Below, one piece after another: positions 26,036 to 32,000 of a stretch of 64,000 nucleotides of DNA. The notes beneath the pieces are model-generated. The model was not told the DNA's origin. It did no database searches and saw only the letters and a program-made list of their open reading frames with translations. Within the stretch, counting starts at the first letter, position 1, and each line of letters opens with the position of its first letter. This stretch comes from Saccostrea echinata. Its lineage: Eukaryota. Made by a program: the position numbers and the translations under genes. Location of the stretch: NCBI RefSeq assembly GCF_033153115.1, contig NW_026889796.1, positions 12,834,001 to 12,898,000 on the forward strand, read 5' to 3'.

Positions 26036-29000
26036 ATGGTGTCAGCCAAACCATTCAAAAATCAGAAATACCAAAAGATAAAGAAGGAATGCATCAAGAA
26101 GAGGGCGCTGTTCAGGGACAGTGAATTTCCTCCCGAGGGTGCCTCCCTATTTTACAGCAGGGCAGCCCCGGCAGACATTGTCTGGAAACGACCAGGGGTG
26201 AATATCAATCAATAATTAGTGAAAGGTGATATGACGAAACTCATAAAAGAAAAAGGTAAAAGTAAAGAATATTGATCGACCTAACAAAATCTACAAACAG
26301 CAAAAATTTGTGAACAGGGGGAAAAAGAACCCCGGGAATTCCAGAAATCAACGATTTTATGGATATTCGGTTGAATTTTTTTTCTTTTAGTAAACAGCCA
26401 ACGGAGTGTAATTTTAGAACTTCCTTTCCAAATACGACTCTAAGATTTTTGCCAATATGTACAGAAATGACGAAAATTAAACGACAGAAATTTGGAAGGG
26501 GGGCCCGGGGTGGGGGGTGAATGTATGTTTTACATCGTTATAGGAGGCTACTTCAGCAGTAAAAAAATGTTTTGAGCAGAATTACTAAACAGCAATAAAC
26601 TCTGGTGAAGTTGTTTTAGATAAAAAAAAAAAAAACAGCAAGACAAAAGAAAACTTTCAATATCATCTATTTCAATTACAAATATTAATATATTTTACAA
26701 AAATCAAATTTTAAGATCGGACTCCAAAAATAATCTAAATTCATTAAGTGTCTCTCAGACTCATTTTCCATATTATTTCAGTCCCAAAAACTTTAAAACA
26801 CGGGTTTTGATGCTTTTTCTTGTCTTGGTTGGAGAGGATTTCTGAAGAAAAGAAAAAAAATGTGTACGCACAAAAAAATATTTGAAACTGTTTAAGAAAA
26901 GTCAGTCAAATAAAAGAGACGTTTTAAACAGATTTTAATACTTTTATCAATGTCAAACAAAAAGATACCTTTTCTGAACACGTTCCATGAGCATGGTTAT
27001 CCTCATAATTTAGTATGCTTGATAAAGGGTTAGGAGTATACTTGGTTTGATTTAGCTTTTCACTCTGAAAGAAAAGGAATATATAGGCATGTTATTGTTA
27101 ATATCCTATAGGAAAAAATATAAATTTTTGTTTGAATGTCATCTCGCTAAGGGGATGTAAAAAATTAAATAAAATGTTATTTACCTTTGGACTGTCCTTA
27201 AAATAGTCTATATTGAAAAGGAAGAGTTTCCTGGGTACAAACAATTCATTGTTATTCTCCTCATTAGCTTCCATTTCTCTCTCCATGCAGGAATTCTTTA
27301 ATATGAAAATAATTGAAAGTTAATTCTCGAAGAAAAGCCGACAATGTATGAAAATTAATTCAAAAGTTCATTTTAAACTATTCACGCAGCTTACTTTTGA
27401 TTTCTCTTGTACTTTTTGCTGGATTTGGTGTGATTTCATTTCCGAGCTTGTCTCCTAAAGAAAGTAAATAATTAGCTTTTGATTTAGCAGACAGATAGAA
27501 ATAAAAAATTGAAATCTTAAAATATTTTAAAGAATAAATACCAAACTTACTCTTGAACTCTGTTCAAGTTGTTTTTGAAGCTTTTCTTTAGCCATTTGAA
27601 TCACATTATTGATGAACTCCTAAAAAATATTTCAAAAACTGGTAAACGACATTGAAGTCTTTTTCAATTCGTTACGAAAAAAATTTTTATGGATCGCTGG
27701 AAATTTTCGAGTTCGTTGCATGGGACGTAGAATATCACATTTACCTAAGTCCAAATTAATAGGGGTTGAAATTTCGCATACATTACCCACAAAAAGCACA
27801 TAAATGATATTGAACGAAAATTAAAATCTGTGGTTAAATTACTTACACGTGTAAACTCCTTTTGTAGTTCTTCGTTTGCAGCGGTTATTATGTTTTTAAC
27901 GTATTCCTGGAAAAAGAAAAAAATAATGTCAGATTTATATTGGTTATTATTTCAATATTATTAATATCGAATTCCTTTAACAAATTTATAGAAATATTTT
28001 CTATGCAATATTTTGCTTTATTCTAAAGTAAACAGTTAGTAAATCAGCGCATCGAACGTTGAATCTTTCAATGCTAACTTCACATGTATAATAATAATCT
28101 CAACCATACCTTACTGAGTCTATCTTTTTTCTTTTCCTCCATTCTCTGGAAAAAAGTATCAATATTAATGTTAATATTTAAGTCAAACATATTAACATTC
28201 AAACACAACTAACATCATGTGCGGATCTACAGGGGTGTGTGGGGGGGGGGGAGGGGGGTATCAGGTCAGGTCCCCCTGGAATTTGCAGAGTTATAAAAAG
28301 TATACACTGAAGCAAATAAAAAATGACTATGCCCCCCCCCCCCCCGAAAACGTGGACCCCACCACCACCACCACCACCAAATAGGTGTTTTTCACTTTTT
28401 TTTGTTTTTGTTTTTTGTTTTTGTTTTTTTTTTTTTTTTCTTATCAAGAAATTTTTGGGATAGAATTTTTTTGACTGGGACGGACCCCCCCCCCCTGGAA
28501 AAAAAATCATGGATCCGCGCCTGAACATGTGTATATCACGTGAGAAATAAATCTTATAAAATGTACCTACCACAAGCTCCCTGTGGACTGCTTTCATCAT
28601 TTCTAGTTTTCTGTATATATCTGCTCGAATATGGTTCATATAATTGGTCCTTTTGGTTACTGTTTCCTATTAATAGGGAAGAAAAAATTGTATACAAGGA
28701 TTTACAAGAGAAGTAGTATTTTGTTTGAAACATATTTATTAATTGGACTTAAATAATCATAAATTATAAATCTAAAAATATTAAGCTGATAATATCAATG
28801 CGTAGACAATTTCTCAATTCGTTATTGATAGATTATCAATCAAGATATCACAATAAGTTGAACACCAAATCGTTTTGACATTTTTGAAATATCTATAAGC
28901 ATGGATTAGTACATCTTCAGGAAAAAAAAAATCTGAATCCATCATGTCATTTTAATCAACAGCTATAATTGGAAAGTTGTTTTACTCACCATACATTCCT

Positions 29001-32000
29001 GAAGAACTTTCGTTATAACAGCACGAGCAATTTTCTTTCTTTGACATTCGATCTGAAAATATACACAAAAATAAAATAAATAAAAGATAAGTCTTTTCGA
29101 CAAAAGAATTTGTTAATATGAAAATGAAAGTATTTAAAGTACCCAATGAAGTCATATCGATAATTAAATGACATTAATTGGCGAGTACTTCATACCTTAA
29201 GTTCTTCATGAACAACCTCCATTAGTTCCCTTTTTCGCATCATGTCGGCCTGTATTTTCTCCATCTTGCTTAACTTTCTGGCTATAGTGTCCTAGAATTA
29301 GAATACATTGGCTACATTTAAGATAACTTGATTCTAACTCGCTGTTTATTAAATCAAGATTAAATGGTGAGTACTACGTACCTTAAGTTCTCTGTGTACA
29401 GCATCCATTAGCTCCCTTTTATGAATCAATTCGGCCTGTATTTTCTCCGTCTCGCTTAACTTTCTAGCTGTAGTGTCCTAGAATACGTTGACATTGACTA
29501 CATTAAGACAAATTGATTAAAATTCACCGCTCATTGAATCAAGATTAAATGGTGAGTACTACGTACCTGAAGTTCTCTGTGCACAGCATCCATTAGCTCC
29601 CTTTTTCGCATCATGTAGGCTTGTATTTTCTCCATCTTGCTTAAATTTCTAGCTGTAGTGTCCTAGAATACGTATACATTGGCTACATTTAAGATAACTT
29701 GATTCTAACTCACTGTTTATTAAACCAAGATTAAATGGTGAGTACTACGTACCTTAAGTTCTCTGTGCACAACATCCATTAGCTCCCTTTTTCGAATCAT
29801 GTCGGCTTGTATTTTCTCCATCTCGCTGAACTTTCTAGCTGTAGTGTCCTAGAATACGTATACATTGGCTACATTTAAGATAACCTGATTAAAATTCACC
29901 AATCATTAAATCAACATTAATTGGTAAGTACTACGTACTTTAAGCTCTCTGTGTACAGCCTCCATTTGATCTTTCTTCCTCATCATGTCGGACCATATTT
30001 TTTGCATCTCGTTTTTCTTTCTGGTTATGGTGTCCTAGGATAAGTAAACATTCAGTACATTTTAAATTCATGCTTCTAATTCATTGTTCATAAAATGTAC
30101 AATGTCATGAATCAGTGAATACCACATACCATCAGCTCTCTGTGGATATCCTGCATTAACTCCCTTTTTCGCATCATGTCTGCCTGTATTTTCTCCATTT
30201 CGCTTGACTTTCTGGCTGTAGTGTCCTACAATAAGTATACATTGGTTACATATTGGTTACATTTTAGAAAATATGCTTCTTATCAACTGTTCCTAAAATT
30301 TACATTAATAAGCGATTACTATACGTACCTTTAGCTCTCTGTGGATAGCCTCCATTTTATCTGTCTTCCTTGCCATGTCGGACCGTATTTTGCGCATCTC
30401 CTTTGACTTTCTGTTTATAATGTCCTGTGAAAAGAATATAAGTGAATAAGTAAATCATAATTCTGCATATCTTGCTTATAATTAACTACAATTATGAACA
30501 ACTGATAATTAAGTTGACTCAACGATTGGTTTGGCGAATTAAACTGGAATGGGGGTGGATGGGGGTCCTTTATATCTCACTGCATCCTTTTCATATTTTT
30601 GATATTTATAAATTATACATAAAACTCTTAGACTTTATTCGATTCATTTATTTCACCCAGGGTTGTGGTATTAGATAATTCCAATTTTACTTACAGTCAT
30701 TTCTTGGTGAACTTTCTTCATAAGGGCTTTCACAATCTTCTTTCTTTCTCTGTCTTCTAACTCCATTGCCTTTCACAAATAAAAATTAAATACAAAAATT
30801 AACAAGGATTCAAGGAGCATTGATGCACATTAACAGCGCGTATCAATTTATTTATATTTCATAACAACAATATATCATAAACAGTAAAGGCCACATAATG
30901 GTAAGAAATTATCACCAATAGATAAATTAATTACCTCCAATCTCTCTTGCCTCTCTACCTCCTCCGCCCAGTTATAACTAAACTTTAATATCTCCAGTTT
31001 GGTCTCCTGAATTTAAGACAATTAATGACATTAGATAATTTAAGCACAAAACACTTTCAACTTTTTTAGTTATTCACAAAATTGAAAAAATGAAGAATAA
31101 AAAATTAGATAAATGACCAAAAAGTTCCAGCACTCACTGTCTGTATGCATATCAGTATCGAACGTAAACTAAAGCTTTGGTATGTAGTTACGCTTACCCC
31201 TTTGTCACTGAAATCCAGTATTTCACTGTAGTCCATCATAAATGCTTCTAAATTCTACAAAAGAAATAGTAAACATAGTGTTCACTGAGTTTTTATAACT
31301 GTAACTCAGAACTTTAATTCGTGAATTAACCAAATTAAGTAAATAGCACATAGCTGCAATTCACATACTGACCTGCTTTCTGCTTAGTTCCTTTGTTTAT
31401 GGTGATAATTGTGACGTCAACTAAGCGTCAGATAGCTATGACGTCACAATCACAAAAGAGCAGACAACTTTCACTCATGCCAATTTTTCGGCCCGTAACA
31501 TAAAAGTCCGCATGAAACAGGCCTTGTTAACGTGCAAGTATGTCCTGTCTCGTAACAAAATTTCTAGATAAAAAAAGCTATGTATTCAGTGAGCCAATTA
31601 TGAGCGACTGATTTTTTCTTGTAACTATACAGGCAGTTTTTGTATAATGTTCAGTAGTATGAATTTTAGGTAATTGTACATCGCATAAAATCTACCACTT
31701 CATCAAGTGTCAAGTCTCCATGCTGGTTTTAAATCAATTAAAAGTATTTTAAAAATAATGAATAAGGTTATAGACAAATGTTTATTTTCGATTTTTCAAA
31801 TGCAAGACATCAATATACTAACCAACTTCGCGATATTTTGGATTTTGATGACTATTAACGATTATAAACGTGTATAGAAATGTAAAGAAAATTATTCTTT
31901 TATGGAAGTTTATTTGATTTATTAGTATTCGTCATTCCAGGAAATCGTCTCCGATCCCAGGTTTTTCACTGAGGGCAGTAGTGCAGACGATTTTTCCCAA

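Follow-up and report, generated by a model that had tools for sequence, protein, structure and literature searches.

A nested gene of short phase-0 exons in a calpain intron of Saccostrea echinata belongs to a large oyster gene family with a putative SLIP1-binding motif

The nested gene and its host intron

The window analysed here is a stretch of 64,000 nucleotides from the oyster Saccostrea echinata (contig NW_026889796.1, positions 12,834,001 to 12,898,000, forward strand), and all positions given below are those of the window. Intron 1 of a calpain gene (26198-31940) contains a second gene, antisense to its host, which runs on the minus strand from an ATG at 31239 to a TAA at 26773. It has 19 coding exons (in order 42, 72, 75, seven of 96, 63, 96, 36, 60, 69, 60, 111, 96 and 69 nt) with GT..AG at all introns. 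All 18 introns are of phase 0, every exon length is divisible by three and open in frame 0, and the spliced frame comprises 506 codons with a sole, terminal stop. The exons also differ in composition from the introns (39% GC and 66% purine vs 29% GC and 47% purine). This arrangement of exons of 36-111 nt inside the calpain intron had been proposed in an earlier sequence-only reading and is borne out by the continuous frame, by matches to Peptidase_C2 (Pfam) on both flanking calpain exons, and by a contig that joins 26196 to 31940 with the calpain exons spliced. The contig comes from run X3, one of five sequencing runs (X1-X5) none of which is recorded as RNA but which were taken as such, being spliced and having several intron bins at zero depth; strand and tissue could not be read from them.

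Nine of the exons are 96 nt long, rather than the eight first counted. Eight of these do encode the 32-residue repeat that had been described, with invariant I13, K20, M24, H28, E30 and L31 and thus the H-x-E-L signature, while the ninth (exon 18) is unrelated to it. Exons 4-10 form a 186-bp tandem array of exon plus intron, and there are other exons that resemble earlier duplicates of this module. The probability of the all-phase-0 structure is 0.5^18 = 4e-6 if the 18 introns are independent; as many exons duplicate one module, the excess is weaker than 18 introns imply, and with approximately 10 independent introns the value is 1e-3, or 0.011 at the phase-0 rate of the host calpain (7 of 11 introns, read by eye). 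The structure exceeds chance. The nesting within calpain looks incidental, with other members of the family sitting elsewhere. The features are as follows.

31360-31470, minus strand: promoter/5′ block, conserved, with two perfect TGACGTCA palindromes at 31446 and 31419
31198-31239, minus strand: exon 1, acceptor at 31254, conserved DYxx[IV]LDF motif; joint 31005-31197 in three of four runs
30935-31006, minus strand: exon 2, KLxILKFxY followed by a SLIP1-binding-like motif; the most conserved exon
30695-30769, minus strand: exon 3, 75-nt helical module with a weak AAG acceptor; joints in runs
29196-30424, minus strand: exons 4-10, seven 96-nt repeat exons in the 186-bp array (30424-30329, 30225-30130, 30034-29939, 29848-29753, 29662-29567, 29477-29382, 29291-29196)
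28990-29052, minus strand: exon 11, 63-nt helical module, restricted to the near clade in the set of copies modelled
28571-28666, minus strand: exon 12, eighth 96-nt repeat, diverged
28145-28110, 27906-27847, 27619-27551 and 27454-27395, minus strand: exons 13-16, helical modules
27185-27295, minus strand: exon 17, acidic stretch followed by the family-wide motif FxPR[KR]LFLF
26969-27064, minus strand: exon 18, 96 nt, non-repeat; the matching region of a homologue is predicted to be disordered
26773-26841, minus strand: exon 19, basic C-terminal helix and stop; joint 26841-26969 in four of four runs
26042-26197, plus strand: calpain coding exon 1, Peptidase_C2 1-31
31941-32072, plus strand: calpain coding exon 2, Peptidase_C2 33-76 (E-value 4e-13)

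An unnamed gene family in Saccostrea

Searches of the genome gave at least 105 matches for one repeat exon, at least 108 for exon 2 and at least 54 for exon 17, the E-values being loose and the counts lower bounds. Clustering at 6.5 kb places the matches in 86 groups on 23 contigs, and 36 groups on 13 contigs carry both motifs. The nested gene is therefore one member of a large unnamed family with at least 36 loci on 13 contigs; the sequence-only reading was right that no named family applies but missed the multigene family in the genome. Sixteen paralogues with repeats were modelled, and a tree resolves three clades, the near clade comprising the window copy and loci L016-L019 at 87-89% DNA identity. 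A further 20 distant loci were scanned, of which 19 gave matches. At these, an AG falls exactly on the phase-0 position in 32 of 39 exon-2-like units, and six of the seven without it belong to one decayed array (L052, at approximately 10.228-10.252 Mb of contig C29 in the genome, G000), in which exon-2-like units lie about 180 bp apart with stops and no proper acceptors.

At the protein level, a profile of exon 2 returned 22 matches, all from Saccostrea, with 7990 candidates scored. A full-length search with P0016, a homologue from Saccostrea cuccullata, returned three, again all from this genus. The repeat profile, run against 1.84 billion representatives, matched two Saccostrea homologues and P0024, the latter rejected as a chance match to a low-complexity repeat. 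The product of the window gene itself was not among the protein matches returned. P0016 is a close homologue of the window product, with the same module order and motifs, but has two exon-2-type motif units and three repeats where the window gene has one unit and eight repeats. All protein homologues found being of this genus, a restriction to Saccostrea is weakly indicated, the genome-level search having covered this one genome and the exon-2 profile search only 7990 candidates. In RefSeq, XP_062616273.1/XP_062616274.1 carry the names ‘trichohyalin-like’ and ‘golgin A6-like’, which reflect composition only, and other Saccostrea members are listed as uncharacterized. Nothing reached the Pfam cut-off with nine single exons and seven full-length homologues, two ESM Atlas searches gave no usable feature match and uninformative structure entries, and tblastn against viral and metagenome contigs found no relative and hence no support for a viral origin. 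No literature on the family was found by titles and abstracts, although supplements could list its genes.

Exon 2 and the SLIP1-binding motif

The most conserved exon is exon 2 and not a repeat exon; it carries a motif that the sequence-only reading had missed and that offers the best indication of function. The ratio of non-synonymous to synonymous substitution rates (dN/dS) of exon 2 is 0.02 against near and far paralogues alike, with synonymous sites near saturation against the far clade. Its protein sequence is identical in 10 of the 12 closest paralogues, the exceptions being one substitution (L016) and one deleted codon (L022). When a profile of 21 copies was compared with 177,635 PDB sequences, only two matched at an E-value of 10 or below, namely 4JHK_C, the SLBP peptide bound to SLIP1 (E-value 0.062), and the N-terminus of eIF3g (E-value 3.5). 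Both matched sequences are SLIP1-binding motifs (SBMs) according to PMC3763545, where the SLBP residues in contact with SLIP1 are given as N93, W94, G95, D96, V98, E99 and E102. The window product has N, W, A, E, V, E and E at these positions.

Across 45 units in 22 homologues, W94 is kept in 44, V98 in 43 (with M in the other two), E99 in 45, E102 in 44, D or E at position 96 in 40 and S or N at position 93 in 41, while the solvent-facing positions 97 and 100 vary. The SLBP and eIF3g loci of the same genome carry like motifs (DWAEEME and SWAEQVE). Family-wide there are one to four copies of the motif per protein, with two to four in distant members. The region lies in an N-terminus of low order, the predicted local distance difference test (pLDDT) being 37-77 over the N-terminal 70 residues of P0016. 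Literature on the ‘SLIP1-binding motif’ included nothing on molluscs by title or abstract, ‘oyster’ was absent from the entries listed for oyster, SLBP, CTIF and histone mRNA together, and the word ‘mollusc’ does not occur in the available part of bioRxiv 10.64898/2026.10.14.759114.

Predicted docking on a SLIP1/CTIF-like protein

The genome encodes a SLIP1/CTIF-like protein, P0025 (E-value 2e-23 to zebrafish SLIP1), with an exon 100% identical to contigs C17 and C63. From an alignment read by eye, it keeps the SLIP1 pocket residues R76, L80, Q84, F87, L125 and P128, so that six of 10 are identical; L83 is conservatively replaced by V, and R77, N81 and A124 are changed. P0025 is SLIP1-sized (273 aa) and is annotated as CTIF-like. 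The gene was seen at C17:5165116 and at C63:100631, 138000 and 209290, as two identical exon copies, one partial copy and one bearing a stop.

Complex prediction with P0025 45-273 and P0016 52-95, which holds the second unit of P0016, scored 0.87 vs 0.02 for the best of three controls, with at least 97% contact agreement between runs and a partner pLDDT of at least 64. In calibration with microbial pairs, 51 of 78 solved and 2 of 108 mismatched ones reached the score mark; with eukaryotic pairs, 71 of 105 solved and 2 of 126 unrelated ones did so. The predicted contacts centre on W76 and V80 of P0016, lying in the SBM groove, and those on P0025 (120, 121, 124, 125, 127, 128, 169, 170, 173) correspond to R76, R77, L80, N81, L83, Q84, A124, L125 and P128 of SLIP1. 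The prediction shows a likeness to SBM complexes, not binding.

The remainder of the protein and the promoter

Structure prediction, which had been put forward as a check on the repeat, was carried out on P0016 with AlphaFold2 (pLDDT 63.8) and gave a mostly helical protein, with predicted helices at 11-49, 64-234, 236-313 and 390-397 and a disordered stretch before the short C-terminal helix. A Foldseek search of this model against the PDB gave no matches. The C-terminal helix had been described as basic and amphipathic; it is predicted to be helical in P0016 and is conserved across paralogues, but its hydrophobic moment is unremarkable, the best C-terminal window ranking 128 of 496 within the protein. 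No signal peptide or membrane span was apparent from Kyte-Doolittle maxima of 0.28 (9 residues, N-terminus) and 0.45 (19 residues, anywhere), no dedicated predictor having been run. The profile of the exon-17 motif had no match in the PDB; the RxLF within it resembles what we take to be a cyclin-docking motif.

The promoter block was matched 13 times in the genome, with 85-100% identity and in every case at a family gene, and its TGACGTCA palindromes are kept in all 13 closest genes. These we take to be sites of the cAMP-response element (CRE)/ATF type, which suggests that expression may be inducible through them. A non-coding first exon with its donor near 31371 is likely. The A-run at 26711 was rejected as a poly(A) tail, being on the wrong strand.

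Transcript evidence and exon skipping

The five runs contain 8-10% of the words of the window, and four of them have joints of the CT..AC type at 12 or more of the 18 modelled introns, among the joints listed. The run contigs differ from the window by fixed letters; on L016, most are 95-99% alike. In related animals, then, a gene of the near clade is spliced in the way modelled here. Changes private to the window copy number 11 synonymous and eight non-synonymous (dN/dS 0.16) and show that purifying selection has acted on this copy ever since its divergence from the closest paralogues. One contig of run X1 (at L016:3054) links coding exon 1 to a different upstream sequence, possibly an alternative first exon; this sequence was not found in the window or in the 77 loci compared.

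Diversification by exon skipping, as first suggested for this gene, is weakly supported, the sole evidence being a pair of S. cuccullata RefSeq isoforms, XP_062616273.1 and XP_062616274.1 (P0016 and P0015), which differ by one 32-aa repeat. The skips seen in RNA, on the other hand, match paralogues that lack the exons concerned. A joint omitting exon 14 is present in all four runs, but skipping of this exon was rejected, as the joint equals the genomic structure of L016 and L017, from which exon 14 is missing. Where a repeat is joined directly to exon 12, the letters are those of the far clade, whose genes are without exon 11. On L016, all 15 joints among those listed connect neighbouring exons. 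It should be mentioned that assembled contigs lose rare variants and do not resolve near-identical repeats.

Duplication history and selection

Variation in length through exon copy number, the other source of diversity that had been proposed, is evident among the five closest copies, which have eight (window), eight (L016), 13 (L017), 11 (L018) and six (L019) repeat exons as a result of genomic duplication. L017 has a duplicated block with an identical exon pair and L018 has three identical repeat exons, such identical repeats probably being the mark of unequal crossing-over. Exons have also been lost, exon 14 being deleted in L016 and L017 and exons 14-16 not being found in L018.

The near clade arose by duplication of the calpain locus. 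L016, L017 and L018 carry calpain exon 1 beside the gene, with a deletion in L016 and a stop in L017, and L018 also matches part of calpain exon 3, though not exon 2. Given these fragments, the window locus is the donor of the three duplications. Far-clade copies share only the gene, the promoter and the 3′ flank, within ragged limits; in dispersed copies, the shared sequence reaches from approximately 390-790 nt upstream of exon 2 to 240-490 nt beyond the stop. No common termini were found in dispersed copies, and no dedicated search for inverted repeats or a transposase was made. The spread of the far clade appears to be DNA-level copying without defined transposon ends.

Pooled dN/dS is 0.18-0.34, with values of 0.09-0.57 for most exons other than exon 2; between the repeats, a comparison that had also been proposed at the outset, it is 0.35. 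The uniform phase 0 mainly reflects the way in which the gene grew, through duplicated modules of symmetric exons; skipping is possible but secondary.

Exons 3 and 12 stand out when compared with the far-clade locus L020. Only 2.5 of 34 synonymous sites differ, whereas six other exons differ at 54.5 of 76 (Fisher p 9e-11), and yet some 20 differences alter the amino acid. This could be the product of gene conversion and subsequent fast change, or of constraint at the RNA level. The excess of dN over dS (20.5 of 137 vs 2.5 of 34 sites) was rejected as a sign of positive selection, the sites being too few.

Other features of the window

There are two calpain genes in tandem on the plus strand, at 26042-36053 and from 38195 onward. 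In the first, Peptidase_C2 is accompanied by a weak match to C2 at the end, and its layout is presumably of the calpain-5/TRA-3 type. Intron 1 of the second is approximately 0.6 kb long and contains a 36-37 bp tandem repeat (38634-39011) and no nested gene. Within intron 12 of the nested gene, at approximately 28226-28524, lies a GC-rich insertion of 300 bp which is absent from L016-L019, is matched by unrelated contigs of the runs and resembles a small mobile element. A spliced gene on the minus strand (approximately 17000-22468) is arranged head-to-head with calpain and has a lysine-rich N-terminus and, by eye, leucine-rich-repeat-like segments; two fragments of it had no Pfam match.

Comparison with known systems

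Cellular carriers of SBMs named in PMC3763545, PMC8373075 and bioRxiv 10.64898/2026.07.31.742013 are SLBP, DDX19 and eIF3g, all of them conserved single genes whose products have a folded functional domain. As in the oyster family, SLBP, DDX19/DBP5 and eIF3g, which are ligands of SLIP1/MIF4GD, CTIF and PAIP1, have a short W-x-x-x-V-E-x-x-E helix near the N-terminus, conserved amid variable sequence of low order, and the same groove is predicted for the family. The oyster proteins differ in being without an RNA-binding, helicase or RRM domain (neither the exons nor the full-length homologues matched the SLBP, DEAD-box or eIF3g/RRM domains in Pfam), in having the motif one to four times and always preceded by LDF and KLxILKFxY, in occurring as dozens of copies rather than one, in having a long helical spacer of variable length, and in being found only in Saccostrea in the searches made. 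SLBP and eIF3g are separate genes in this genome.

In schistosome micro-exon genes (MEGs), about 80% of the coding region is in symmetric exons of 6-36 nt, according to PMC5825161. The nested gene shares with these its short symmetric exons and its place in a lineage-restricted multigene family, and some MEG members have amphipathic helices. However, its exons are of 36-111 nt with a median of 96, only one 36-nt exon (2% of the coding length) falls within the MEG range, there is no signal peptide, and skipping is not the main demonstrated source of variation. The analogy with MEGs that had been drawn fails, therefore, on exon size and on secretion. The oyster family lies outside the SLBP, DDX19, eIF3g and MEG families and likely works like an SBM ligand.

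Proposed function and alternatives

DDX19B holds CTIF inactive near the nucleus through its SBM region (PMC8373075), and PAIP1 binds the same motif; for this reason the family is read as tethers or decoys for SBM-binding translation factors, docking through the N-terminal SBM, an interpretation towards which we lean. The anatomy would be that of a docking motif, a predicted long helical spacer of variable length, the FxPRKLFLF motif and a basic tail. The SBM of exon 2 would dock on the MIF4G groove of the oyster SLIP1/CTIF-like factor, which would be held, or competed away, at one end of a rod that is predicted to be helical and is longer or shorter depending on the gene copy, by analogy with the action of DDX19B on CTIF at the nuclear pore. 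The FxPRKLFLF motif or the basic C-terminal helix may anchor the protein to a partner or membrane, and transcription may be induced through the CRE-type sites.

Several points weigh against this interpretation. The PDB E-values are not significant alone, the weight of that search lying in the identity of the two sequences matched, and the conservation counts are partly circular, since the profile that retrieved the 22 homologues itself contains the SBM columns. In 12 of the 45 units there is V or I at position 95, where known SBMs have G or A, and P0025 has N and R at the positions of SLIP1 R77 and N81. The LDF and KLxILKFxY motifs are just as invariant, lie outside the confident interface and are unexplained; they may bind a second partner. 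A like complex (4JHK) has been solved, so that the prediction was possibly memorised, its score carries no calibration for peptides or disordered chains, and a congener's homologue, which has three differences in 32 core residues from the window product, was modelled as the partner. The P0016 model has a predicted template modelling score (pTM) of only 0.25. PAIP1 also binds SBMs (bioRxiv 10.64898/2026.07.31.742013), through a groove that is likewise targeted by coronavirus NSP3 according to the same source. Finally, the RNA contigs are identical to no genomic copy, and at seven sites all four near paralogues carry the letter of the runs while the window differs.

The likeness of the motif could be coincidental or vestigial, with the proteins being structural coiled-coil or single-helix scaffolds, for example of sperm or cilia, in which the entire exon 1-2 unit serves to bind a different partner. 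Short acidic Trp motifs are indeed common (347 viral stretches fit two patterns and none are relatives), the upstream KLxILKFxY equals the SBM positions in invariance and does not belong to any known SBM, and the bulk of the protein is predicted helix. However, conservation in the exon-2 helix sits exactly on the SBM contact positions and not on solvent-facing 97 and 100, and the predicted interface coincides with the known SBM groove. Scaffolding is regarded as a rather improbable explanation. A little less credence still is given to skipping as the purpose of the architecture, with one gene yielding many isoforms as in schistosomes. The 18 phase-0 introns, the RefSeq pair differing by exactly one repeat and the insensitivity of contigs to rare or repeat-internal skips are what this idea would call on, but the L016 joints run neighbour to neighbour, the apparent skips coincide with exons absent from the genomic paralogues, variation in length is already present between gene copies, and the gene has neither micro-exons nor a signal peptide.

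Least probable of all, in our estimation, is a selfish or conflict-driven gene set, such as transposon cargo or a germ-line driver, copied as DNA and acting on host translation through the SBM. The number and dispersal of the loci, with introns kept in dispersed copies, would fit this, as would the broken copies (stops in five of 115 modelled repeat exons, and the decayed array L052), the mosaic divergence between exons and the restriction to one genus in the searches made. Against it, the shared sequence of dispersed copies is ragged-ended, no transposase was seen beside copies although no search was aimed at one, near copies derive from segmental duplication together with calpain fragments, and the pooled dN/dS is 0.18-0.34.

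A bolder form of the tether or decoy reading, which we regard as unlikely though well worth stating, is that rock oysters evolved dozens of dedicated, partly multivalent SBM-mimic decoys for the SLIP1/CTIF/PAIP1 groove, switched by CRE sites and re-sized by exon duplication and skipping. If true, such a battery would serve to switch off histone-mRNA and pioneer-round translation or to move it elsewhere, either under stress or as part of an arms race against viruses or selfish elements of the germ line aiming at that groove as well.

As to what the family means, an all-phase-0 gene can evidently arise by module duplication, and skipping need not be its purpose. Many ‘uncharacterized’ Saccostrea genes are hereby supplied with a hypothesis of function. 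At least 36 lineage-specific genes seem to encode hardly anything beyond one to four SBMs, a spacer and a tail, and if the tether or decoy reading is true, they would represent a novel mode of control over histone-mRNA translation, over pioneer-round translation or over the exchange of poly(A)-binding protein.

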